Assembly (NCBI GenBank): GCA_965205015.1
Contig: OZ242029.1
Span: forward strand, 3,360,001-3,424,000
Reading direction: 5' to 3'
Length of the DNA: 64,000 nucleotides
Origin: Candidatus Poribacteria bacterium
GTDB lineage: Bacteria > Poribacteria > WGA-4E > WGA-3G
Made by a program: the position numbers and the translations under genes. Each line of letters opens with the position of its first letter. The stretch's first letter is position 1. Positions 9,903 through 60,126 of the stretch are shown in pieces. The notes beneath the pieces were generated by a model, which saw only the letters and a list, made by a program, of their open reading frames with translations, was not told where the DNA came from and did no database searches.

Positions 9903-10670
9903 TTATGCTTCCAGAGGCACTACGTCGGCATAGACGTAGGTGGGTGAAGTGTTCCTGTTTGCGTGAATCTTGTCATTGCTGTCTTTCTGAGAAACAATGT
10001 CTCTCTGGACAACTTTACCCGGTTTCGCGGCAACAGGCGAACTAAACATCGGTCCATCAACAACACATGTATGGAACTCACCGTTTTCACCGAGCGGATC
10101 CACCCCATCGGGTAAATCGGCAAGGAGTTCGGCATCGAACCAACGTCCTGCGAAATCGGCAGGAACCTTGGTCGGATTGAGGGCAGTGATAATGGCACGC
10201 ATGCCGGAAGTGATCATTTTTTCAGCGAGTTGTGTTGTGTTTTCTCCCCATACCGGAAAAATCGGTGTGAAACCGGTTCCGCGTAATTTGTCTTCTCGGT
10301 ATTCACGGATGTCTTCTAAGAACAGATCCCCGAAAGCGAAATGCGATGTTCCCTGATGTTCGGGTAACGCTTCCACTTCAGCGAGAAATTTTCGCATCGC
10401 CTCTTCATAGATCGCATTGGAACAGGGATAGGGGATCGGTATTTCATACAATGGCACTCCAAGTTTCTCCGCTTGCTGTTTGAGCACCCACGCCGGCGTA
10501 GAGTGGATGGAGACGCGATCAAATGTCTTTGTGACAGTCGTAAAAATACCCCGCACCTCGTAGCGTTCCGGCTCCTGACGGAGTGTATGAAGTGCCCATG
10601 CAGAATCTTTGCCCGAGGACCAAGAGACAAAGACTGGGACAGGAGTCGTGTCGTTCGTCTGTTTTGTCAT
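9903..10670 (-). CDS. Adenine nucleotide alpha-hydrolase (Dph6-like ATP pyrophosphatase)
   Basis: SWSSGKDS PP-loop, FGDLFLED, GENGEFHT. Confidence 0.85.
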   Translation of the reverse strand: MTKQTNDTTPVPVFVSWSSGKDSAWALHTLRQEPERYEVRGIFTTVTKTFDRVSIHSTPAWVLKQQAEKLGVPLYEIPIPYPCSNAIYEEAMRKFLAEVEALPEHQGTSHFAFGDLFLEDIREYREDKLRGTGFTPIFPVWGENTTQLAEKMITSGMRAIITALNPTKVPADFAGRWFDAELLADLPDGVDPLGENGEFHTCVVDGPMFSSPVAAKPGKVVQRDIVSQKDSNDKIHANRNTSPTYVYADVVPLEA

Positions 10671-10700: not shown

Positions 10701-11264
10701 CTACAATGCCAAAAAATTGGAGAGTAAACTCTTTCCAGCAGTCGTCAAAATCGACTCTGGATGGAACTGCACGCCCCAAATAGGTAGCGTTTTATGCCGA
10801 AGCCCCATGATTTCATCCTGATCTGTCCAAGCGGTGATCTCAAGGCAATCTGGTAATGTATCCCTTTTTACGATCAGTGAATGGTATCGCGTGGCTTCAA
10901 ATGGATTGTCCAATCCCTCGAAAAGTTCGACCGCATTATGTTCAATCATTGAGGTTTTCCCGTGCATCAACCGGTCTGCTCTAACGACGTCACCACCGAA
11001 TACGTCTCCGATGCACTGGTGACCAAGACAGACCCCCAAAATCGGAACTTTGCCAGCGAAGTGTTTTATTGCATCGTTAGATATACCGGCTTCTTTCGGC
11101 GTGCAAGGACCCGGTGAGATGACAATCCGTTCAGGTTTGAGGGTATCTAAGGCGTCTAATCCTATTTTTCGACTCCGATGCACCTCCAATTCAGCACCGA
11201 GTTCACCGAGATACTGCACTAAATTATAGGTGAAGGAGTCGTAGTTATCAATCATTAAGACCAT
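10701..11264 (-). CDS. trpG: Anthranilate synthase component II (glutamine amidotransferase)
   Basis: [27 protein letters not shown]; follows trpE. Confidence 0.93.
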
Positions 11265-11295: not shown

Positions 11296-12798
11296 TCACA
11301 ATAGAAAACCCTGTTCTGCTAAAGCAATGGCACTGAGCATAGCTCGCGCTTTACTCAAGGTTTCGTAATACTCCGTTTCAGGCACAGAATCCGCGACAAT
11401 GCCAGCACCCGCTTGCACATAAGCCGTGCTATCTTTGATAACCGCCGTTCGGATCGTAATCGCTGTGTCTGTGCTGCCAGAGAAACTGAAGTACCCGACC
11501 GCGCCTCCGTAAGTCCCGCGGCGTGTCGATTCGAGTTCATCAATGATTTCCATTGCCCGGACCTTCGGGGCACCTGAAAGGGTGCCTGCGGGGAGGCAGG
11601 CTCGGATCACATCGAAAGCCGTGACATGCTCACGGAGTTTCCCGATCACGTGTGAAACGATGTGCATCACGTGTGAGAAGCGTTCAACTATCATGAGATC
11701 GGTCACTTCAACCGTCCGATACTCGCAGACGCGCCCGAAGTCGTTGCGTCCTAAATCAACGAGCATGACGTGCTCTGCGCGTTCTTTCGGATCTGCGAGG
11801 AGTGACCGTTCCATCTCAAGGTCCTCCTCCGTCGTTTTGCCACGCGGGCGAGTTCCGGCAAGTGGGCGATGCTGAGCGAGTCCATCCTCTACCCGTACCA
11901 TCATCTCCGGGGAGGCACCTACAATATCAAAACTCTCCAGTTTCAGATAATACATGTAAGGCGATGGGTTGACGATCCGCAATGCACGATACACCTCGAA
12001 TGAATCTGCAGATACTGGACAACTCAACCGCTGCGAAATTACCGCTTGGATGATGTCGCCTGCGGCGATGTATTCTTTCGCACGCCGAACCGCGGTTTCG
12101 TAGCCTGACTTTGTGAAATTCGATTGCGGATCGGATAGGATTTCATCATACCCGTCTTGAGACTCGCTACGCGCGCTGCCGACATGCGCTTCGGAAGTCG
12201 CTGTGAGTTTCTCGACCAATGCCTCAATTTTCGCAAGAGCCTCCGCATAAGCCGCGTCCACGTCTCCATCAATATGCGCGTTCGCCACAACCTTGATCTG
12301 ATGGTTCACATGATCGAATATCAAGAGCGTTTCGGCAATCATGAAGAAACAGTCGGGCAGCTGCAGATCATCTTCGGTATTATCTGGCAGTTCCTCGACG
12401 AACCGCACCATATCGTAACTCATATAACCCACCGCGCCCCCGTGAAATTTGGGTAGTTCTGCATTGTGAACAGGTCGGTAATCCTGCATCAATTCCTCGA
12501 GCGCACGCAACGGATCTTCATATTCCTGAACGACGGTTTCGCCTTTTTCCAAGTACTCAATGGTAACCTGATGCCCTTTACTCTGGAAAAGCACTGAGGG
12601 TTGGCTCCCCAAAAAAGAGTAACGCGCAAGATTTTCACCCCCCTCAACGCTTTCAAGCAAGAACACATAATTATCTGGCATCAACTTGTAAAAAGCAGAC
12701 ACCGGTGTCTCCATATCCGCCAAAATCGATCGGTATACCGGTATCGTGTTTCCTGATTTCGCTGCCTCGCGAAAATCTTCCAACGTAGGATAATACAT
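11296..12798 (-). CDS. trpE: Anthranilate synthase component I
   Basis: LLESVEGG, NPSPYMY, AEHVMLVDLGRND, GTLSGAPK. Confidence 0.95.
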   Translation of the reverse strand: MYYPTLEDFREAAKSGNTIPVYRSILADMETPVSAFYKLMPDNYVFLLESVEGGENLARYSFLGSQPSVLFQSKGHQVTIEYLEKGETVVQEYEDPLRALEELMQDYRPVHNAELPKFHGGAVGYMSYDMVRFVEELPDNTEDDLQLPDCFFMIAETLLIFDHVNHQIKVVANAHIDGDVDAAYAEALAKIEALVEKLTATSEAHVGSARSESQDGYDEILSDPQSNFTKSGYETAVRRAKEYIAAGDIIQAVISQRLSCPVSADSFEVYRALRIVNPSPYMYYLKLESFDIVGASPEMMVRVEDGLAQHRPLAGTRPRGKTTEEDLEMERSLLADPKERAEHVMLVDLGRNDFGRVCEYRTVEVTDLMIVERFSHVMHIVSHVIGKLREHVTAFDVIRACLPAGTLSGAPKVRAMEIIDELESTRRGTYGGAVGYFSFSGSTDTAITIRTAVIKDSTAYVQAGAGIVADSVPETEYYETLSKARAMLSAIALAEQGFLL

Positions 12799-12884
12799 AT
12801 TTTAAATTTTCCTTGCGGTTCGGTCAGGTGCGTCTGGAATTCACGTTCTTATCCGTATGTCCGCCTGCGTATTGTTGCAGGCTC
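12799..12884 (-). repeat. Dispersed ~90-nt 'CCGCAAGG' element, copy A (abuts trpE start)
   Basis: GCCTGCAACAA..CGCAGGCG hairpin ... CCGAACCGCAAGG-AAAATTTAAAAT-ATG. Confidence 0.8.
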
Positions 12885-12914
12885 GGTTTTTTAAACTGAC
12901 GAACCTATTAGGGT

Positions 12915-13295
12915 CTAATAGACCGCATCTTCATCGAAAACCTTTTCGCCTACGATCTGCGTTGATTCTCCGTCGGGGGAAACTTCTCGAAAGAAGCAGG
13001 AACGATAACCGACATGGCACGCCGCTACTTTCTGCTCAACCTTTATGAGCAGGGCATCACCATCACAATCTATTGCAATAGATTTAACCGTCTGCGTATG
13101 CCCTGAAGTCTCCCCCTTTATCCACAACTTTTGGCGGGAACGGCTCCAGAAGCAGACGCGCCCTGTATTCAGCGTTTCCTTTATCGCTTCTGCGTTCATG
13201 TAACCTAACATCAGGATTTCGTTATTTGTGTCATCTTGAATGATTGCTGCGACTAAACCATCGCGGTCGTACTTAATTTCCGATAGAATTCTCAT
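12915..13295 (-). CDS. hisI: Phosphoribosyl-AMP cyclohydrolase
   Basis: [31 protein letters not shown]. Confidence 0.96.
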
Positions 13296-13337
13296 CTGGG
13301 TTCTCCTTTACAAATTTTGTCAATCTGCGAACTTTGC

Positions 13338-13378
13338 AAAAAAAATACCTTATGCCGCCGGGATCGGTGTGCATAAGG
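13338..13378 (-). terminator. Attenuator (intrinsic terminator) upstream of hisI
   Basis: Minus strand CCTTATGC...GCATAAGG stem followed by TATTTTTTTT. Confidence 0.85.
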
Positions 13379-13429
13379 CTTCAACAGGACTTAAAAATAA
13401 AAAGTGACGATTTTCAATTTCTATTTCGA

Positions 13430-13531
13430 TTATCTGTTCGAGCGCACACTCCCCCGCAAGCCATTGGACCGCCACCAATGCCAATGGTTAGATATGCGAT
13501 GCAAGCTGGAGTGTGAACCTAAAAATGCCAT
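13430..13531 (-). CDS. His/Trp-rich attenuation leader peptide MAFLGSHSSLHRISNHWHWWRSNGLRGSVRSNR
   Basis: Manually translated 33-aa ORF preceded by AAGGAAAAAGG; HWHWWR cluster; lies between a promoter and a terminator ahead of hisI-trpE-trpG. Confidence 0.8.
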   Translation of the reverse strand: MAFLGSHSSLHRISNHWHWWRSNGLRGSVRSNR

Positions 13532-13596
13532 CCTTTTTCCTTCTCAACAAGGGTTGATGATTACCAAATCTTTGGATGTATCCACATCTACTATTA

Positions 13597-13625
13597 ATAA
13601 TAACATATCTGTTTTGTATTGTCAA
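13597..13625 (-). promoter_or_regulatory. Promoter of leader-hisI-trpE-trpG
   Basis: TTGACA-N17-TATTAT with extended TG. Confidence 0.75.
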
Positions 13626-13645
13626 ATATTTTTTCAAAAAAATAT

Positions 13646-13674
13646 TTGCAGAAAATGGCACAACGTGATATACT
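13646..13674 (+). promoter_or_regulatory. Divergent promoter of the riboswitch locus
   Basis: TTGCAG-N17-TATACT with extended TG. Confidence 0.7.
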
Positions 13675-13702
13675 ATATACATTACAATTAAATAAACGAA
13701 CG

Positions 13703-13860
13703 ATTCAGGTGCCGAATTACGGAGAATAGGGAAGCGCGGTGAGAATCCGCCACGGCCCCGCCACTGTGAACGATCGCAAGTATCCGCTGAAAAAACCACT
13801 GTCAAATCACTGATGGGAAGGTCCAGCGGAAGGATCGGAAGTCAGGAGACCTGCCTGAAT
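13703..13860 (+). ncRNA. Cobalamin riboswitch
   Basis: AATAGGGAA-GCGGTGAGAATCCGC, CCCCGCCACTGT, CCACTG..GGGAAGG, B12 box AAGTCAGGAGACCTGCC; P1 ATTCAGG/CCTGAAT. Confidence 0.93.
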
Positions 13861-13999
13861 TGTGTTTCACGCATCTGCTTTCGCGGGAAAGCGGTGGAAC
13901 GGAACACAGTATCCTGTCAAACGAAAAAGAAATTCTCACATAAGAGATGGAATTCTCTCACACAGTTACAGGATATGCCTTACACAGAGTGTCGCTTCC

Positions 14000-14054: not shown

Positions 14055-15410
14055 ATGAACAAAGTTGTAGCGGCGCGGCTCGCAAGCGCGTCTCAAAAAG
14101 TCGCTCGTCGGCACTTCTCGTGTTATTCACTCCTACTTATCGGTGCGATCCTTTTCACACTCCTCGTGCGTCCCACCTTTGGACAAACAGAGGCCCCAAA
14201 CGCGGCAGTTGTCATAAATGCCTTAACGCATCCCGATCTGGGCATCACCGCCTCGCTCTCACTCATCAATCTGACGGAGCCTAATGAGAGACGGGCTGTT
14301 GACAATGAAATACTCCGCATCGGCTTTGATCCGATATTACGGCGGCGCGCAATTGGTCTCTCTATTTACGGGCATCTCGCCTATGTCACGAGTTTCAACT
14401 TGCCCATCACTGGCGAAACAAGTTCCGGCGACAACATCTATATTATTAACTTGGAAGATCGAGAGTTTGTTGGCGAAATTCCAATCCAAGCGGGCACAAC
14501 GCCGCAGCAAATCGCCTTGGTCAGTGATCAGAAGCTATATGTCACCTGTGCCGCAACGCATGAGGTACACGTCGTTGACATTCCGAATCGCAATGTAATA
14601 AAGGTCCTCACCGGTTCCTTCAACAAACCGACCGGTATCACACGCCTCAATGGCAAAGCCTACGTCGCGAACCCCGCATGGGAGTGGGATCCGGTTGCAC
14701 GGAAAACGACCTATTATGATAGCAGTGTCACAGTGATTGATACGCAGACAGACATCATATTAAAATCCATTCCGGTGCCGACAAATGCAGGGGCGATCAT
14801 CAACGACAACGAATCCACCGTTATTGTCAAGACAACGGGTAATTACAACGATGTCCTGGGGCATCTCGTTCTGATTGACGCAACTACCGATGAGATTATC
14901 GAAACGGTTAAGCTCGGTTTCACGCCTGGTGCCTCTGCCCTTAATTCAGAAAAACAGTTGTTTATCCAAGGCAGTTGGCAAAACCCCGGCTTACTCATCT
15001 ACGATATTGCAGCACAAAACTGGATCCGTGACGAAGATGACACGATCACCAACTTCAGTAACAATGCAGATACACCTATCAGTGGTGGACTGACTTTTGC
15101 ACCCGATGGAAATCTCTATATCATCCAACCCGACTGGTCGGGCGGTGGACAGGATTTCGTTCGCGTCATGGACGTTGCCGATGCCTCTCTCCTGCGATCC
15201 TATCACGTTGGACCCGCTGGCTCTATTTTGGGGTTCGCAACGATTACACCGCGACGTGAAGACATCAACAATGATGGGTTCATCAACATAAAAGATATGA
15301 TAATCGCAGGACGTTTTCTCGGCGACGAAGGTCCCGGGATACGTGCCGATGTCAATGGAGACGAAGTGGTGAATATTCTTGACTTGGTGCTGATCGATCA
15401 GGGACGCTAA
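14055..15410 (+). CDS. Secreted YncE/BtuG-like beta-propeller with C-terminal dockerin-like domain
   Basis: Signal-like N-terminus; repeated blades (KLYVT, KAYVAN, VTVIDT); DINNDGFINIKD...DVNGDEVVNILDL dockerin repeats. Confidence 0.7.
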   Translation: MNKVVAARLASASQKVARRHFSCYSLLLIGAILFTLLVRPTFGQTEAPNAAVVINALTHPDLGITASLSLINLTEPNERRAVDNEILRIGFDPILRRRAIGLSIYGHLAYVTSFNLPITGETSSGDNIYIINLEDREFVGEIPIQAGTTPQQIALVSDQKLYVTCAATHEVHVVDIPNRNVIKVLTGSFNKPTGITRLNGKAYVANPAWEWDPVARKTTYYDSSVTVIDTQTDIILKSIPVPTNAGAIINDNESTVIVKTTGNYNDVLGHLVLIDATTDEIIETVKLGFTPGASALNSEKQLFIQGSWQNPGLLIYDIAAQNWIRDEDDTITNFSNNADTPISGGLTFAPDGNLYIIQPDWSGGGQDFVRVMDVADASLLRSYHVGPAGSILGFATITPRREDINNDGFINIKDMIIAGRFLGDEGPGIRADVNGDEVVNILDLVLIDQGR

Positions 15411-15436: not shown

Positions 15437-17452
15437 ATGGTCATCGCGCATCGGTTATCGGTTATCAGAAGAATAATCGTCAGCCATCAGCAATCAACTA
15501 AAAGCCGACTGCTGATGGCTGATGGCTATAAAGTAGCGCAGGTCTTGTGGGGCTTGCCGCTACTCCTTTCTTTGCTCTGTTGCGCTTCAGCTCCCAAAGC
15601 GGAACCTATCTCATGGGAGGTAACGTTTTTTTCCTTGGGGGCAAAGGTGCAATTTGGAACAACAGCACCGATACGAAACATAAAAGCCTTTAATCCTGAC
15701 GATGTGAGGGTCGCGCAACTCAACTTTCCTGTGCCACCTCGGCAGACGGAATCCCTTTATTTTCAGTGGAGCGAAGGAGAAACCTATCGGTTTGAGGCGA
15801 CCTTATCCACGGGGAACAGTATCGCTCAAAGCGTGACGGCACCGCGAACATACACACAGGGAAATTTAGAGATTGCTCTACCCTATGGTGCCGCGATTGA
15901 GACGGATTTAAGTAAGCCATCAGAAATTGATCAGAAGGCACTTGTTTTGCATGAAAGTGAAATGACAGCCACGGTCCTCGTCACAAACGGGAACGTCCCA
16001 ACGACCTTTGATCTCGAACTTTGTCTACCATCAACCGTCACAGCCGTTCGCTTTCCAGAAGATTGGAAGACAAAAAAAATGGAGTCGAAAACGTGCCTCT
16101 CCGTCACCAGTAGACTTGGTGTTGCATCGGAGGTGTGGTACCGTGAGTTAGTGTTGAAAACATCTGCGGCAAACCCATTGGATAGACAAGAGATTTCAGG
16201 CACTGTCCGTTTCACAACGGATGCAGGACAGATATGGGAACAACAAGCGACCGTGCAACTGCGGATCGCAACTGTTTCTGAGATTGCCGAACACCTCTCC
16301 ATCGAATCCATTGAGATGCCTACAGACGCAACGGGGACGGTCGATCCGAAGCAGCGAGAAAATACCATCTACTATCCACGCCCCTTATTCAGTTGGCTCC
16401 AAACATCACAGACCAATGCGTTCGAGCCGGTAACTTATCAGACAGTCCGACTCCGCAACGGCGGTGAAGAAACAATCCACGTGGTTGTGTCTTCAACGAA
16501 CACGGATACGAAAAGTGGCGAAACTATCCCCTTTCTTGCACCTCCAGAGACAACGAACGGTGGGGTGAATCAGAGCGTAGCGTTTGCGAGTCTGCCGGGT
16601 GGCACGGTTACAGAAATTCCGCTGCCTCTCTATTTCCATCCAGTGTATTTAAGTCAGGGTAAAATGGAGCAGGCGATCCCTGGGGCGTATAAACGTGACG
16701 TTACGGTAAAGGTTTGGGGAAGCGATGCGACAATTCTTCGCCAACAACGTCCACTTCACCTAATCGTTCCAAACCAGCAAGCGTTGCTCGTGAGTCTATT
16801 GGCAATCATCAGCAGTTGCATCGGTTTTGCAATTGTCTTGCGGTTCCATGAGCGACTTTTCGCGGGTTTCACAACAAAGCATCTCATTGTGATTGCCCTG
16901 TTCAGCACAACGGTTTTTGTGGCGGTGATGGTTCCGTCAACCCTGTTCCTTAATTTAGTCCGTGCCATCTTAGGTCCGTTCTCTGTACTGCTAATTGGCT
17001 TAATCAACGAGACGCTCTACTACGCCTTATTGACAGCATTGCTGATTTACATCACTGGAGACCCCAGAAACGCTGAGACGACAAATCATGTCCGCGTGAA
17101 AGGGAGTGGTGTAATCCTGCTTGTCTCTGCGGTACGTCTGCTTCTTGGAGGCGTAACGTTCGGGCTTTTCACACCGATGGCAATCGTCTATACCGGCACA
17201 AGTGTCCTCTTATTGGAAACGGGATTCTTACTTGTGCGGGATCGCCATCTACTGGCGTGGGCAGTCGTATTAGGCATCTGCGACGCCCTCTCTGGTTATG
17301 TCGATTTGCAGCTTTCTATACTCTTCTATCGGCTTTTCTACGCTGATTGGTATATTGTTCTCCGAATTTTAATAGAGGGGTTCGTCTATACATTTATCGG
17401 TGTCCTTCTCGGGGCGCGGTTGGGGAGAGGTTTATGGCGTGTAGCAGAATAG
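15437..17452 (+). CDS. Membrane protein with large extracytoplasmic domain and C-terminal multi-TM (ECF S-component-like) domain; start uncertain (alternative 15515)
   Basis: About 6-7 hydrophobic helices in the last ~220 aa; first ~30 codons lie in a heptamer repeat element. Confidence 0.6.
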   Translation: MVIAHRLSVIRRIIVSHQQSTKSRLLMADGYKVAQVLWGLPLLLSLLCCASAPKAEPISWEVTFFSLGAKVQFGTTAPIRNIKAFNPDDVRVAQLNFPVPPRQTESLYFQWSEGETYRFEATLSTGNSIAQSVTAPRTYTQGNLEIALPYGAAIETDLSKPSEIDQKALVLHESEMTATVLVTNGNVPTTFDLELCLPSTVTAVRFPEDWKTKKMESKTCLSVTSRLGVASEVWYRELVLKTSAANPLDRQEISGTVRFTTDAGQIWEQQATVQLRIATVSEIAEHLSIESIEMPTDATGTVDPKQRENTIYYPRPLFSWLQTSQTNAFEPVTYQTVRLRNGGEETIHVVVSSTNTDTKSGETIPFLAPPETTNGGVNQSVAFASLPGGTVTEIPLPLYFHPVYLSQGKMEQAIPGAYKRDVTVKVWGSDATILRQQRPLHLIVPNQQALLVSLLAIISSCIGFAIVLRFHERLFAGFTTKHLIVIALFSTTVFVAVMVPSTLFLNLVRAILGPFSVLLIGLINETLYYALLTALLIYITGDPRNAETTNHVRVKGSGVILLVSAVRLLLGGVTFGLFTPMAIVYTGTSVLLLETGFLLVRDRHLLAWAVVLGICDALSGYVDLQLSILFYRLFYADWYIVLRILIEGFVYTFIGVLLGARLGRGLWRVAE

Positions 17453-52354: not shown

Positions 52355-52954
52355 TTATGGCTGTGTGGCACGTTGGGAGACGACTTGATCAACGAGGCCG
52401 TATTCAAGCGCCTGTTCCGCAGTCAGGTAATAGTCCCGGTCGGCATCAGTCGCGATCTTCTCAACATCTTGGCCCGTATGCGCTGCTAAAATAGAGTAAA
52501 GTCGGTCCCTTTCCTGCAGAATCTCTTTTGCATGGATGCTAATATCAGAGGCTTGACCGCCAATGCCACTCGCCATCGGTTGGTGAATGAGTGCTTTGGC
52601 ATGTGGTAGCGCGTAGCGCTTTCCAGGGGCTCCAGCGGCGAGAAGGATAGCGCCCATACTATAAGCTCTCCCTAAACACCAGGTCTGCACATCCGCTTTG
52701 ATGTATTGCATCGTGTCGTATATTGCCAAACCGGCGGAAACGGAACCACCGGGTGTGTTAATATAGAGCACTATATCTGCATCCGGGTCCTTCCCCTCAA
52801 GGAAAAGCATCTGTGCCGTTACAATATTGGCGATGATATCATCATCGATCGGTGTGCCGATCATGATAATTCGATCTTCAAGTAGACGAGAATAGATATC
52901 GTATGAGCGTTCGCCTCGGCTGGTTTGTTCAACGACGATAGGTACAAGGTTCAT
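52355..52954 (-). CDS. clpP: Clp protease proteolytic subunit
   Basis: [22 protein letters not shown]. Confidence 0.96.
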
Positions 52955-52961
52955 AGTTTTT

Positions 52962-53070
52962 TAGTTATCAGTTATCGGTTAACAGTTATCAGTTAACTGC
53001 TGGTGGCAGTTACGGTTTCCATATCCATCAATCACTTTAACTGACAACTAACGCCTGACGACCGACAACC
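52962..53070. repeat. Heptamer-tandem inverted repeat element
   Basis: agttatc x3 ... ctgacaa/ctgacga/ccgacaa. Confidence 0.75.
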
Positions 53071-54479: not shown

Positions 54480-54564
54480 TGGGCGAGGAGGGACTTGAAC
54501 CCTCACGAGGCGTAACCCCAATAGATCCTAAGTCTATCCTGTCTACCAATTCCAGCACCCGCCC
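54480..54564 (-). tRNA. tRNA-Leu(TAG)
   Basis: Cloverleaf with long variable arm, anticodon loop CT-TAG-GA, GTTCAAGTCC. Confidence 0.93.
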
Positions 54565-54588
54565 GAACGTGCTTTAAGGCACTCAAGA

Positions 54589-54661
54589 TGCGCCGTGAAG
54601 GAATCGAACCTTCAACCGCCTGATTAAGAGTCAGATGCTCTGCCAATTGAGCTAACGGCGC
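54589..54661 (-). tRNA. tRNA-Lys(CTT)
   Basis: Anticodon loop CT-CTT-AA, GGTTCGATTCC. Confidence 0.95.
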
Positions 54662-54769
54662 GCCTGTTCCCACTGCGAAGCATTTCTTTCTGACCGTAGA
54701 CGCTCTAAGGACCACTCGCTAATTGTTAGGTGCACTTTCAAAGCGCACACCCGGCACCCAAAAAATATC

Positions 54770-54842
54770 CGCGTCCGGAGGGATTCGAACCCCCAACTTA
54801 TAGTTCCGAAGACTATTGCTCTATCCATTGAACTACGGACGC
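54770..54842 (-). tRNA. tRNA-Arg(TCG)
   Basis: Anticodon loop CT-TCG-GA, GGTTCGAATCC. Confidence 0.93.
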
Positions 54843-54850
54843 ATATTAAA

Positions 54851-54923
54851 GGTGGATGATGGGATTTGAACCCACGCCCACTTGATCCACAGTCAAGTGC
54901 TCTACCCCTGAGCTACATCCACC
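54851..54923 (-). tRNA. tRNA-His(GTG)
   Basis: Anticodon loop CT-GTG-GA, encoded G-1. Confidence 0.93.
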
Positions 54924-54956
54924 ATGCTTCGATTTTTCATCGAGCTGTCTGAAAAG

Positions 54957-55030
<74 letters not shown>

Positions 55031-55058
55031 TCGTGCTATGAATTTTGATCGTTTCTGA

Positions 55059-55134
<76 letters not shown>

Positions 55135-55557: not shown

Positions 55558-56859
55558 ATGCGCTTAATTGAAGGGATATCCATTGGAATCTCCGCAATTC
55601 GTTCAAATAAAATGCGCTCGCTGCTGACGATGCTTGGTATTATCATCGGTATCGCGGCCGTGCTGGCAATGATCGCTATCGGGGATGGGGCTAAGCAAAT
55701 TGTGATAGAAGATGCAAAAAAAATGGGAGGGGCAACCCGAATCACACTCTACCAGACCTCCTACAAACGAGAAAATAACAGATGGGTGCGTATTCGTAGC
55801 AACGAATACATGGAATATGAAGATGTATTGGCGATTGAGGCAGAATGCCCATCTGTGAGTGCTGTCACACCGAGAATTGCGGATTGGAGGGGGGTTCTGT
55901 TTCAGGGTCCGGGCGGCACGGAAGCCCGCGCTGGTTATAACGGCGTAAATGCTACCTATACAACCGCAATGGATTGGGATATTAAGGCGGGACGCTTCAT
56001 TACAGACGAAGATGTCCAAAACGCAACAAAAATCTGTGTGCTCGGAGACGAATTAGCAACCGAGTTATTCGGCAATGCATCCCCTTTAGGACAAGAAATC
56101 AAAATTGCCAGAGATGTCCGATATTACGATCCGTGGGGCAGAAGACGGCGAGACAGATTGACCGAACGTTTCACGGTTGTGGGTACACTCATGCCGAGAG
56201 GTACGAGTTTCCAGTTTGGGTGGACTTACGATAACATCGCCTTTATCCCTGTGTCAACCGTCCAAGAACGTTTCACCGGCGACGACCAGGTTCGGAATAT
56301 TATGGTCTTCGCGAATAACGTTGACGATGTTCCCAAAGCGATCGAAGAGGTGAAGACAGTCATCAGAAAACGGCACAGAAACCAAGATGAATTCGTCAGA
56401 ATCTTTGAAATGCGTGCGGGTATGGCACAATTACAGAAAATCAGTAAGATGATCAAGATCGCATTGGGGAGTATCGCAGGCTTCTCACTGCTCGTCGGCG
56501 GTATCGGCATTATGAATATGATGTTAGTCGCTGTCACGGAGCGAACCCGTGAAATTGGGCTTCGAAAGGCACTCGGTGCCAAATCCTTAGATATCTTGGC
56601 TCAATTTCTCATAGAGGCAGTGATCATGTGTGCTGTCGCTGGGGCAATCGGTATCGGTTTGGGTATCTTTGCTGGTGAAGGTATGGCAATGCTTGCTGTT
56701 AAAATCGCCAAAATTGTTCCCGAATGGCCCTCGGTTGTTTCTATGCAGTGGGTCATGATTTCTGTATCATTCTCCGCGGCAATTGGTATATTTTTTGGCA
56801 TGTATCCTGCAATCAAAGCTTCCAGCCTTCCACCGGTTGAAGCATTACGCAAAGAATAA
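55558..56859 (+). CDS. MacB/FtsX-family ABC permease
   Basis: RSLLTMLGIIIG, GGIGIMNMMLVAVTERTREIGLRKALGA. Confidence 0.92.
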   Translation: MRLIEGISIGISAIRSNKMRSLLTMLGIIIGIAAVLAMIAIGDGAKQIVIEDAKKMGGATRITLYQTSYKRENNRWVRIRSNEYMEYEDVLAIEAECPSVSAVTPRIADWRGVLFQGPGGTEARAGYNGVNATYTTAMDWDIKAGRFITDEDVQNATKICVLGDELATELFGNASPLGQEIKIARDVRYYDPWGRRRRDRLTERFTVVGTLMPRGTSFQFGWTYDNIAFIPVSTVQERFTGDDQVRNIMVFANNVDDVPKAIEEVKTVIRKRHRNQDEFVRIFEMRAGMAQLQKISKMIKIALGSIAGFSLLVGGIGIMNMMLVAVTERTREIGLRKALGAKSLDILAQFLIEAVIMCAVAGAIGIGLGIFAGEGMAMLAVKIAKIVPEWPSVVSMQWVMISVSFSAAIGIFFGMYPAIKASSLPPVEALRKE

Positions 56860-56861
56860 AG

Positions 56862-57115
56862 TAATATGCGGGCAGGCACAAGACCTGCCTCTACAATAAT
56901 ATGCGGGCAGGCACAAGACCTGCCCCTACAATAATATGCGGGCAGGCACAAGACCTGCCCCTACAATATGCGGGCAGGCACAAGACCTAGGGAAACACCC
57001 AAGCAAAAACCCCCTACAATGTCTTTTTGCTTTGATGAAGATTAATTTTTTAATTCGGTAATATGCGGGCAGGCACAAGACCTGGGGAAACACCCAAGCA
57101 AAAATCCCCTACAAT
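56862..57115. repeat. Tandem array of five 35-bp GTAG-type REP units; copies 4 and 5 carry a GAAACACCCAAGCAAAA insert
   Basis: (TAATATGCGGGCAGGCACAAGACCTGCCYCTACAA)n; reverse strand reads GTAGGGGCAGGTCTTGTGCCTGCCC. Confidence 0.88.
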
Positions 57116-57235
57116 GTCTTTTTTGGGATAGGATTACCGAAATATTTATTTAAACTTCATGGAAGTGCGCCTTTCCTCATTAAAATTTTCAATCCCTATT
57201 TCCCAACCAACAAACAATAAACCTATTTGACTTAA

Positions 57236-57264
57236 TTGCGTCTAAATTCTATAGGTGCTATAAT
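57236..57264 (+). promoter_or_regulatory. Putative promoter for 57376
   Basis: TTGCGT-N17-TATAAT with extended TG. Confidence 0.55.
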
Positions 57265-57375
57265 TTGGCAATCACTTGGATAAAAAAGAAATTGCTACGA
57301 AAAAATCGAACTTTATTCCCCCTTTTTTGTCTAACGCATTAAGGTTAGGAATACTTTAGAATCTGGAGGCATGAA

Positions 57376-58680
57376 ATGCGTATAGTTGAAGGCGTATCGG
57401 TTGGCATTTCCGCGATTCGTAGCAATAAACTGCGTTCTTTGTTGACGATGCTTGGGATTATTATCGGTGTTGCCTCGGTGCTGGCGATGATAGCCATCGG
57501 TGATGGTGCAAAGGCGATTGTCCTGCAAGACGCCCAGAAACTCGGGGGTGTGAACCAATTTACGATGTACCGAAGTAGCCATAAACGAGTGCGTGGGCGG
57601 TGGATGCCAAATCGTAGTAATGAATATTTTGAGTATGAAGACGTATTGGCGATTGAGGCGGAATGTCCATCTGTAAAGTTAGTCGTTCCAAGAATTCCAG
57701 AATGGCGGGGTGTGCTTGTCCAAGCCGCCGGTGGCGCAGAACACCGGACGGGTTATAACGGTGTAAATGCATCCTTTTCGGAAGCAATGGATTGGGACAT
57801 CCAGCAGGGGCGTTTTATTACAAACGAAGATATTGATAATGAAGCGAAGGTCTGTGTGCTTGGTGCTGAAGTGACGGCAGCCTTATTCGGGAATACATCT
57901 CCTTTAGGAAAAGAGATTAAGATCGGCAAAGGTCCCGGGGGTCGTTTTGATCGGTATGGCAGAAAAGACCAGAAACGGATCACTGAACGTTTCACTGTCG
58001 TCGGCACAATGGAAACCAGAGGACGCAGCTTGCGGTTTGGCTGGAACTTGGATGACATGATATTCATCCCGCTCACGACAACGCAGGAACGCTTCACTGG
58101 CAACGATAGGATTGTGATGCTCTCAGTTCATGCGAATACTGTTGAAGAGGTCCCGCAAGCAATTGAAGAGGTGAAAACTGTTCTCCGAAAGATGCATAGC
58201 GGTCAAGACGATTTCTTCTCAATCTGGGATATGCGGGAAGGTATGGCGCAGTTGGATAAAATCAGCAAAGTCATAAAAATCGCATTGGGGAGTATTGCAG
58301 GATTTTCGCTACTTGTGGGTGGTATTGGGATTATGAATATGATGCTGGTCGCCGTCACCGAACGCACTCGCGAGATCGGTTTACGAAAAGCGATCGGTGC
58401 GAAACGTATGGACATTATGTTACAGTTTTTAATAGAAGCGGTTGCAATGTGTAGTGTAGGCGGTGCGTTGGGTGTTCTATTGGGAATTTTTGCTGGCGAA
58501 GGGATGGCGATGCTCGCTGTCAACATTGTCAAAATCGTTCCCGAATGGCCCTCGGTTATCTCTATGGAGTGGATATTAATTTCAGTCTCCTTTTCAGCGG
58601 TAATCGGTATCTCTTTTGGGCTCTATCCAGCAATAAAAGCCTCTGCACTCTCACCGATTGATGCACTCAGGGCTGATTAG
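57376..58680 (+). CDS. MacB/FtsX-family ABC permease (paralog of 55558)
   Basis: Same motifs, visibly near-identical long stretches. Confidence 0.92.
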   Translation: MRIVEGVSVGISAIRSNKLRSLLTMLGIIIGVASVLAMIAIGDGAKAIVLQDAQKLGGVNQFTMYRSSHKRVRGRWMPNRSNEYFEYEDVLAIEAECPSVKLVVPRIPEWRGVLVQAAGGAEHRTGYNGVNASFSEAMDWDIQQGRFITNEDIDNEAKVCVLGAEVTAALFGNTSPLGKEIKIGKGPGGRFDRYGRKDQKRITERFTVVGTMETRGRSLRFGWNLDDMIFIPLTTTQERFTGNDRIVMLSVHANTVEEVPQAIEEVKTVLRKMHSGQDDFFSIWDMREGMAQLDKISKVIKIALGSIAGFSLLVGGIGIMNMMLVAVTERTREIGLRKAIGAKRMDIMLQFLIEAVAMCSVGGALGVLLGIFAGEGMAMLAVNIVKIVPEWPSVISMEWILISVSFSAVIGISFGLYPAIKASALSPIDALRAD

Positions 58681-60009: not shown

Positions 60010-60019
60010 GTTATTTCAT

Positions 60020-60126
60020 TAGTTATCAGTTATCAGTTATCAGTTATCGGTTGTCAGTCTACAAGAGGTCTTCGGATTACCAAAACCCTCTTTTAACTGA
60101 TAACTGACGGCTGACGGCTGACGACT
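60020..60126. repeat. Heptamer-tandem inverted repeat element
   Basis: agttatc x4 ... aagagg..cctctt ... ctgataa ctgacgg ctgacgg ctgacga. Confidence 0.85.

Follow-up and report, generated by a model that had tools for sequence, protein, structure and literature searches.

A candidate leader-peptide attenuator with mixed His and Trp codons ahead of hisI-trpE-trpG in Candidatus Poribacteria

Leader-peptide attenuation has been described chiefly in Proteobacteria, along with a few other groups, and its multivalent forms stay within one pathway family. The enterobacterial his leader carries seven His codons in a row, thrL combines Thr and Ile codons, and ilvL and ivbL combine Ile, Val, and Leu codons. 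Here, we analyzed a leader ahead of the hisI-trpE-trpG genes of a Candidatus Poribacteria bacterium, located in a 64,000-nucleotide (nt) window of contig OZ242029.1 (assembly GCA_965205015.1, positions 3,360,001 to 3,424,000). All leader and operon features were read on the minus strand of this window, and coordinates are given as window positions. We are highly confident that the leader is a real and conserved Trp-responsive leader-peptide attenuator. Judged from sequence comparison, it is probably a ribosome-mediated transcription attenuator of mixed His and Trp codons that controls hisI-trpE-trpG and has a functional His input. The mechanism is of a known kind, leader-peptide attenuation; the new part is a sensor that mixes His and Trp codons, and its presence in Poribacteria.

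The leader of trpL in Escherichia coli and Salmonella (RF00513) shares with this locus a short leader open reading frame (ORF) with adjacent Trp codons, a terminator ahead of the first gene, the control of trpE, and one segment, here seg2, that chooses between an upstream partner (seg1) and the 5' arm of the terminator. However, no sequence or covariance-model similarity was found between them. The Trp codons of the Poribacteria leader lie in the loop between seg1 and seg2, whereas those of trpL lie inside seg1. The Poribacteria leader also differs in its 33 codons with interleaved His, in hisI as the first gene, and in an operon that holds only trpE and trpG while the other trp genes are elsewhere (trpB is distant). 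With hisL (RF00514), the locus shares leader-ORF His codons ahead of a his gene and a terminator/antiterminator switch. Unlike hisL, the Poribacteria leaders hold one to four His codons mixed with Trp instead of seven in a row, do not match the hisL model, and control only hisI rather than the whole his pathway.

Codons for more than one amino acid in one leader, with de-repression by any shortage, are also the property of thrL and ilvL/ivbL. The amino acids of those leaders come from a single branched pathway family, whereas the His and Trp pathways are unrelated and are joined here only by the hisI-trpE gene order. As in a multivalent attenuator, regulatory codons of two amino acids were each conserved in the stall region. 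Part of one account of Sinorhizobium meliloti trpL-trpE(G) describes a 14-amino-acid (aa) leader with Trp codons only, and the other trp genes in separate leaderless operons (PMC6614838). To that extent, the two systems agree in that only the trpE(G) unit is attenuated, and differ in the absence of hisI from the S. meliloti operon, in phylum, and in RNA sequence (PMC6614838). In the full-text literature, neither a mixed His/Trp leader nor a Poribacteria attenuator was found; the broad survey of Lopatovskaya et al. (2010) lay outside the coverage of this search. The locus would extend the same attenuation logic throughout an uncultured candidate phylum, with a sensor made of the codons of two unrelated pathways.

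The leader would be transcribed from a sigma-70-type promoter (13597..13625) with a -35 hexamer TTGACA (13625-13620), a 17-nt spacer, and an extended -10 element TG-n-TATTAT (13602-13597). It matched 11 of 12 consensus positions and has TG ahead of the -10, and similar hexamers were present in two other loci (L001 and L072). The 65-nt 5' region between promoter and leader ATG ends in a purine-rich ribosome-binding region (13532..13545) with an AAGGA Shine-Dalgarno (SD)-like tract at 13542-13538, as read from the sequence. The leader ORF (13430..13531) starts with ATG at 13531 and ends with TAA at 13432-13430. Among its 33 codons before the stop are four His and three Trp, where the background shares in the window's long open frames were 1.95% for His and 1.16% for Trp. 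The regulatory cluster H16-W17-H18-W19-W20 (13472..13486) reads CAT TGG CAT TGG TGG. An A/U-rich spacer (13381..13429), defined from sequence and fold and differing in length between clades, leads from the leader stop codon to an intrinsic terminator (13338..13379), whose end lies 42 bases before the hisI start.

The first structural gene is hisI (12915..13295), encoding a monofunctional phosphoribosyl-AMP cyclohydrolase of 126 aa (NF000768, 173 bits against a cut-off of 126; PF01502). It is followed by trpE (11296..12798), encoding anthranilate synthase component I of 500 aa (TIGR00564, 587 bits against a cut-off of 518), and by a trpG/pabA-type glutamine amidotransferase gene of 187 aa (10701..11264; TIGR00566, 276 bits). 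A first-pass annotation of this DNA had proposed the promoter, the SD, the 33-aa ORF with four His and three Trp, and the HWHWW run, and all of them were recovered in place. Its order of terminator, hisI, and then trpE-trpG was confirmed by the fold and by the profile matches.

A hisI match was present in 170 of 175 Poribacteria species genomes and was the single match in 165 of those 170. The neighborhood of hisI was compared in the window and 92 Poribacteria genomes (n = 93). Wherever the contig allowed, trpE lay downstream of hisI on the same strand, separated from it by 12-871 nt (about 20 nt in clade B, defined below). The core TGG-NNN-TGG-TGG was found upstream of hisI in 86 of the 93 genomes. 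The Trp codons of the core are invariant by construction of the search pattern. The middle codon was CAT in 81, CAC in 4, and TAC in 1, which gives His in 85/86. Among genomes without the exact core, L086 and L148 had one Trp codon changed each, L110 and L119 carried an insertion within the cluster, L141 was cut by the contig end, L154 had unrelated upstream sequence, and L144, a distant genome, had a leader with a single Trp and no His. The insertions in L110 and L119 were about 40-50 nt long, in-frame or near-in-frame, and split the Trp cluster (H-W-Q...I-W-W-H in L110), which possibly disables the sensor in those genomes.

An alignment was made of 85 distinct leaders, 56 in clade A (window included) and 29 in clade B. 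An in-frame ATG without intervening stop was present in 84/85 leaders, and the 85th had GTG; in either of the other two frames, such an ATG was present in 0/85. The first Trp lay 16 codons past the ATG in 69/84 leaders, and an SD-like triplet stood 4-16 nt ahead of the start in 50/84. All differences in length between start and Trp cluster were multiples of three. By these comparisons, the leader ORF behaves as a coding sequence and appears to be kept as an ORF. The clade A peptide reads ..S-H-S-S-L-H-S-I-S-N-H-W-H-W-W-R-S-N.., and the clade B peptide is wholly different except for S-H-H-W-H-W-W-(W)-(H), with a maximum of four His and four Trp over eight consecutive codons. The surrounding peptide is thus entirely clade-specific, and only the (H)HWHWW(W)(H) cluster persists in both clades.

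By TrpE search of the species genomes, two close relatives of the window were found at 80% and 76% identity, every other match being at or below 59%. Both share with the window a leader ORF with the His/Trp (H/W) core, the GGAGTGTGCGC box, and the terminator arm. In L072, one of the two, the leader stop codon precedes the GGAGTGTGCGC box, which indicates that the box is kept as RNA rather than as protein. In genomes from across the phylum, the ORF and its H/W core were found again, as were the terminator and the seg2 box. The first-pass annotation had named two ways in which relatives could contradict it, namely that the ORF and terminator are missing or that His is lost while the Trp pair is kept. 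Neither was the case, since the ORF and terminator are both present across the phylum and the middle His is retained at the frequency given above.

The terminator has the stem GCCTTATGC / GCATAAGGT with more pairs above, followed by A and T8, as seen in the fold. A simple terminator scan did not list it because its loop is larger than the limit of the scan. Across the 85 leaders, 99.7% of cells in the 9-pair stem were paired, and unguided RNAalifold gave the same 9-pair stem. At two positions of the stem, clade A has U-A where clade B has G-C (29 leaders each). None of 500 shuffles matched the covariation score or the percentage paired; the number of pairs with double changes was two, which is no more than in shuffles.

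The minimum free energy (MFE) fold of the window's leader reached -75.3 kcal/mol (z -2.1), and 2 of 200 shuffles were equally stable. In this fold, seg1 (CACACTCC, 13508..13515, codons 6-8 including His codon 7) was paired with GGAGTGTG (13452-13445), and the terminator was also formed. The codon 6-8 stretch CACACUCC was paired with GGAGUGUG, in line with the sequestering by codons 6-8 that had been proposed before. Seg2 (13443..13455) consists of a G-tract and GAGTGTGCG and has two alternative partners, seg1 or, as the antiterminator, seg3 (13359..13373), which comprises TGCACAC of the upper terminator 5' arm and the loop C-tract TCCCG. The seg1:seg2 pairing held in 93.8% of cells in the 56 clade A leaders. 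In clade B, the anti-antiterminator uses a different stretch that overlaps the leader's own SD region, with 79.3% of cells paired. The anti-antiterminator pairing of each clade fails in the other clade (37-42%).

An antiterminator duplex was predicted in every leader. By RNAduplex, the region after the Trp codons paired with the terminator 5' arm and loop at -11.8 to -25.3 kcal/mol, with -19.1 kcal/mol for the window. It is composed of two helices, GUGUGC(G/CU) with the upper 5' arm and the G-tract with the C-tract in the terminator loop. The first-pass pairing of GTGTGC (13449-13444) with GCACAC (13372-13367) was real, but its six pairs were incomplete, as the core has seven pairs and the second helix reaches into the loop. 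MAFFT places seg2 two columns off between the clades, and the core helix was counted with a 2-column correction. Counted in this way, 98.5% of cells in the seven pairs were paired across the 85 leaders, compared with a mean of 91.9% and a peak of 94.1% in row shuffles. At pair 7, 54 leaders have G·U and 29 have C-G. The change of its seg3 nucleotide from U to G between clades is compensated twice, by A to C in the terminator 3' arm and by G to C in seg2. One nucleotide that co-varies with two alternative partners is the pattern that an attenuator predicts. More compensated variants were found in L140, L145, L126, L137, and L184. Furthermore, the seg2 nucleotides are conserved whether they lie inside the ORF, at its end, or past its stop.

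Another possibility is that the region is no leader-peptide attenuator at all, and is instead a protein- or tRNA-binding leader (T-box or TRAP-like) or a small RNA gene with a chance ORF. In favor of it, a stable structure is present in the region, and the letters GGTGGCGGTCC gave a faintly T-box-like first impression. However, Rfam gave no match on the minus strand at gathering score, nor at E up to 10 over 13250-13900. The leader thus had no match to the Trp_leader (RF00513), His_leader (RF00514), or T-box (RF00230) models, and the T-box impression was dropped on this basis. Direct reading of the leader sequence revealed no run of (G/U)AG triplet repeats. The ORF is conserved in one frame only, and its regulatory codons match the operon genes. 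This explanation is therefore highly improbable.

The following course of events is proposed. Transcription would start about 60 nt ahead of the leader ATG, and we infer that the leader is translated and that its RNA folds in the kinetic order described here. With abundant charged tRNA-Trp and tRNA-His, the ribosome would reach the leader stop and cover or pass seg2. The 5' arm of the terminator (seg3) would then be free, the hairpin with its U-run would form, and RNA polymerase would halt ahead of hisI. In an untranslated leader, seg1 would hold seg2, and the terminator would form again. When a ribosome stalls in the H-W-H-W-W cluster (codons 16-20), seg2 would come out free. Stalling might perhaps also occur at His 7 and His 11, in or beside seg1, in the window's clade. 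Free seg2 would pair with the rising terminator arm and loop (GUGUGCG:UGCACAC and G-tract:C-tract) before the 3' arm is made, leading to read-through. Because a stall at either codon leaves the ribosome at the same place, shortage of either His or Trp should de-repress the operon (OR logic). A rationale for His/Trp co-regulation through phosphoribosyl pyrophosphate (PRPP) is speculation.

This scheme was modeled with an assumed ribosome footprint that hides the mRNA to 12 nt beyond the first base of the A-site codon (+13 nt). In the nascent-transcript model, the RNA ends just ahead of the terminator 3' arm, and classical attenuation depends on the same kinetic situation. Here, the mean sequestration of the 5' arm was 0.69 with a stalled ribosome versus 0.35 with a ribosome at the stop, and the stalled value was the higher one in 84/84 leaders. 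In the equilibrium model of the 84 leaders, the terminator probability was 0.99 without a ribosome and 0.99 with a ribosome at the stop. With a ribosome stalled in the H/W cluster, it fell below 0.5 in only 22-26/84, all in the window's own subclade (about 0.01 there). The first-pass geometry, in which the antiterminator is left free by stalling and covered once the ribosome reaches the stop, therefore held in the nascent model in all leaders and failed at equilibrium outside that subclade.

Several of the results weigh against the switch as drawn. At equilibrium, the terminator still won in 58-62/84 stalled leaders, and for this reason the model depends on kinetic trapping. In contrast to E. 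coli trpL, seg1 (13515-13508) is left physically uncovered by a ribosome that stalls at codons 16-20. Either the bulk of the ribosome between seg1 and seg2 would block the helix, or a second, queued ribosome would cover seg1; the conserved 16-codon distance from ATG to Trp leaves room for the latter. Both strands are dinucleotide repeats (GU/AC), and slides of ±2 columns therefore retained 69-76% antiterminator pairing, which means that the exact register is not unique. The antiterminator duplex was only moderately better than dinucleotide shuffles, with a mean of -18.8 kcal/mol versus -13.3 (sd 3.8), and 9% of the shuffles were as good. When seg3 was swapped between clades, clade A seg2 paired equally with its own and with the clade B partner (-17.6 vs -17.9), whereas clade B seg2 favored its own (-21.1 vs -16.4) in 28/29 leaders. 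RNA support comes only from contigs of relatives, as given in detail below.

The strongest evidence for His sensing came from lineages without hisI in the operon. In six genomes, trpE was not preceded by hisI. In five of these six, the attenuator stood directly ahead of trpE, complete with terminator and compensated seg2:seg3 pairing. Four of the hisI-less clusters had at least two Trp: three were without His in the whole peptide (W-R-W-W-W, W-C-W-W-W, and W-W-Y-T-S-W), and the fourth had one His. The fifth hisI-less leader had one Trp and one His. For comparison, 98 hisI-first leaders had a cluster of at least two Trp. A His lay between the first and last Trp in 92 of them, and in 95 one or more His stood no further than two codons from the cluster; of the three that did not fit, one was the spurious ORF of L144. 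L183 (genome G010) stood with the hisI-less loci in this count but belongs to the hisI-first group, since its contig end overlaps a contig with hisI and an H-R-W-H-W-W leader.

A TrpE tree was computed with a quick IQ-TREE search, with Shimodaira-Hasegawa-like approximate likelihood ratio test (SH-aLRT) support, and its root was set by eight loci from other phyla. In this tree, hisI-trpE is the arrangement of the basal Poribacteria lineages, and the hisI-less genomes fall into two distinct clades, G003-5 and G064-66, each with an SH-aLRT of 100. G064-66 is sister to the hisI-bearing G060-63 (SH-aLRT 97), and G003-5 is sister to G010 (88), which retains hisI and the H-R-W-H-W-W cluster. The simplest reading of the tree would be two losses of hisI from the operon, each then followed by loss or decay of the His codons. 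Upstream of the displaced hisI of the hisI-less lineages, no H- or W-rich small ORF was found. These lineages serve as a comparative test that the codon make-up of the sensor tracks the gene content of the operon.

The codons themselves point in the same direction. In distant hisI-first lineages, His and Trp are mixed in other ways and both CAT and CAC are used; examples are W-R-H-W-H-W, H-W-H-W-G-W, W-W-W-H-W..H, and H-R-H-W..H. Candidate Trp leaders of other phyla among the examined loci consist of Trp runs without His. As single cases, L016 and L042 (Smithella / Syntrophales), which have no hisI, carried N-N-W-W-W-W-N and N-G-W-W-W-W-A upstream of trpE, without His. At the middle His codon, RNAalifold gave only a 5-pair mini-hairpin with a loop of 2 nt in most rows, and no feasible conserved helix. 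The dual His/Trp sensing proposed in the first-pass annotation is supported by these sequence comparisons, with the middle His kept in nearly all cores and His absent or unconserved where hisI is lacking; we infer the sensing of His itself from this comparison. That the leader is a true two-input (His OR Trp) sensor joining unrelated pathways, its codons rewritten with the operon so that His was kept over the phylum's entire history where hisI is first and was lost twice, is a reading that we favor by a modest degree. If it is true, the hisI-trpE pair may reflect physiological coupling of the two pathways and not an accident of gene order. The leader would then be a simple and portable example of a codon-built OR gate, and a testable handle on amino-acid regulation in unculturable organisms.

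The main alternative is a plain tryptophan attenuator in which His is kept by RNA constraint, by codon context that tunes Trp stalling, or by inheritance. In its favor, conservation around the cluster is higher for the nucleotides (AT-TGG-CAT-TGG-TGG) than for the amino acids. The codon ahead of the first Trp was NAT in 80/86 cores, and where its His was swapped, for Asp, Tyr, or Asn in 18/86, the last two letters AT were retained. The middle His was CAT in 81/85, although CAT:CAC in the window's genes was 146:142 (51% CAT). This CAT bias could reflect a nucleotide-level constraint or selection for the wobble-read codon. His codon 7 lies within seg1. Each leader holds only one to four His codons, far below the number in classical his leaders. 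Elf & Ehrenberg (2005, PMC1183508) emphasize that attenuation sensitivity is set by how many regulatory codons a leader has.

The distribution of His and of leaders also weighs against a His input. Two hisI-first leaders, L173 (W-Y-W-W) and L191, have no His inside the cluster, and two hisI-less leaders, L176 (inferred GTG start in an alternative frame) and L180 (one Trp in the cluster), still hold one His each. The correlation between His and hisI is based on only two independent losses. The hisG and trpB genes lie far from hisI-trpE-trpG, and no H- or W-rich small ORF was found in their 1.5-kb flanks in five complete genomes. His would therefore regulate just one mid-pathway enzyme, as hisG has no H-rich leader.

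Against a plain tryptophan attenuator, the middle His codon lies in no feasible conserved helix. The H/W arrangements and His codons differ among the distant hisI-first lineages, which shows that they are not one fixed nucleotide motif. His was lost in both hisI-less lineages while W-x-W-W stayed, with Arg or Cys as x, and the candidate Trp leaders of other phyla do without His. A leader that responds to Trp alone is therefore a serious but doubtful explanation, and the mixed His/Trp sensor is preferred.

The W-H-W-W peptide might itself be functional, by nascent-chain arrest in response to a small molecule within the ribosomal tunnel or as a trans-acting peptide or RNA like peTrpL/rnTrpL of Sinorhizobium. 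In TnaC, nascent-chain arrest responds to free tryptophan. The strong conservation of the core across clades would agree with a functional peptide, and RNA contigs of relatives cover the leader. These contigs came from four metatranscriptome runs, had 90-95% identity, and covered 13334-13589 and parts of hisI; they show neither ends, strand, nor level, and the RNA runs cover only small shares of the window. Released attenuator RNAs and leader peptides that act in trans are known, as described in parts of two reports (PMC6614838, PMC7298713), and would give this explanation a precedent. However, nothing is conserved between clades outside the cluster of 4-8 residues, and the cluster consists of only the two amino acids that match the operon genes, with a His content that follows hisI. 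Stalling at codons fully accounts for the arrangement of terminator, antiterminator, and anti-antiterminator. A biosynthetic operon also needs induction by shortage, not by excess. A functional peptide is therefore improbable, and codon-level stalling in the His/Trp cluster remains the preferred reading.

The hisI-trpE gene pair was also searched for in other phyla. It was found directly upstream on the same strand in 18 of 78 loci (L009, L015, L019, L026, L030, L035, L036, L037, L040, L043, L049, L054, L056, L058, L059, L061, L071, and L080) from Actinomycetota, Verrucomicrobia, Acidobacteria, and Planctomycetia. Four Verrucomicrobia loci had a gap of 560-690 nt between hisI and trpE. No W/H leader was detected in these 18 loci, whether the search covered 400 nt from hisI or the full upstream flank. 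The gene pair is far wider in range than the leader, and the findings raise the question of why hisI and trpE keep together in several phyla. For Poribacteria, the gain in annotation would be a previously unannotated small ORF and regulatory RNA in about a hundred genomes.

The 116-nt spacer between hisI and trpE in the window (12799..12914) contains a hairpin (12882-12863) and a 5' module (12836-12796). The hairpin resembles an intrinsic terminator only in the plus (antisense) direction, in which T6 comes after the stem; on the sense side, an A-run precedes it and no U-run follows. The module, (T)ATACGGA .. CCGAACCGCAAGGAAnAATTAAAA, is about 60 nt long and directly abuts the trpE start codon. 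Further copies end at 34280 (+), 36687 (+), 36828 (+), 38305 (+), and 54383 (-). The module abuts the start codons of unrelated genes, namely trpE, a 654-aa ORF, a 263-aa ORF, and a trigger-factor-like ORF. In the four metatranscriptome runs, dozens of different contigs carried it, and their summed depth was very high. The module may be a shared 5' untranslated region (UTR), translation-initiation, or promoter-proximal element of the lineage. If a promoter is included, the module might give trpE attenuator-independent expression in the window's clade, which would speak against sole control by the leader. In clade B, the short spacer leaves no room for it.

Other spacers of the operon were also variable. 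L148 had tandem repeats of about 35-40 nt between terminator and hisI, and the hisI-trpE spacers of L087, L088, L109, and L111 were 700-870 nt long. Small repeats thus seem to insert preferentially in the spacers of the operon. At the downstream end of the window's operon, a fourth same-strand gene follows trpG after 30 nt (9903..10670). It encodes a diphthamide-synthase-like ATP pyrophosphatase of 255 aa (PF01902, 86.8 bits), and its membership in the operon is uncertain.

A cobalamin riboswitch (13690-13872, plus strand, 113.6 bits) lies in the same intergenic region as the leader and is divergent from it. It serves the divergent genes for a 451-aa beta-propeller/dockerin-like protein (14055-15410) and a 671-aa protein without family match (15437-17452). 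Its promoter-like site (13645-13674) stands back to back with the leader promoter. Elsewhere in the window, a cluster of six tRNA genes was located at 54480-55134 on the minus strand. Near it, at 55558-58431, a unit of about 1.8 kb (repeat families D1, D2, and D4) is present twice, with about 70% identity between the copies, and a short array with a 35-nt period lies at 56857-57000. The 7-nt unit TTATCAG/T and its complement form short intergenic runs, for example at 39339-39393, 52954-52994, 60012-60066, and 1727-1766.

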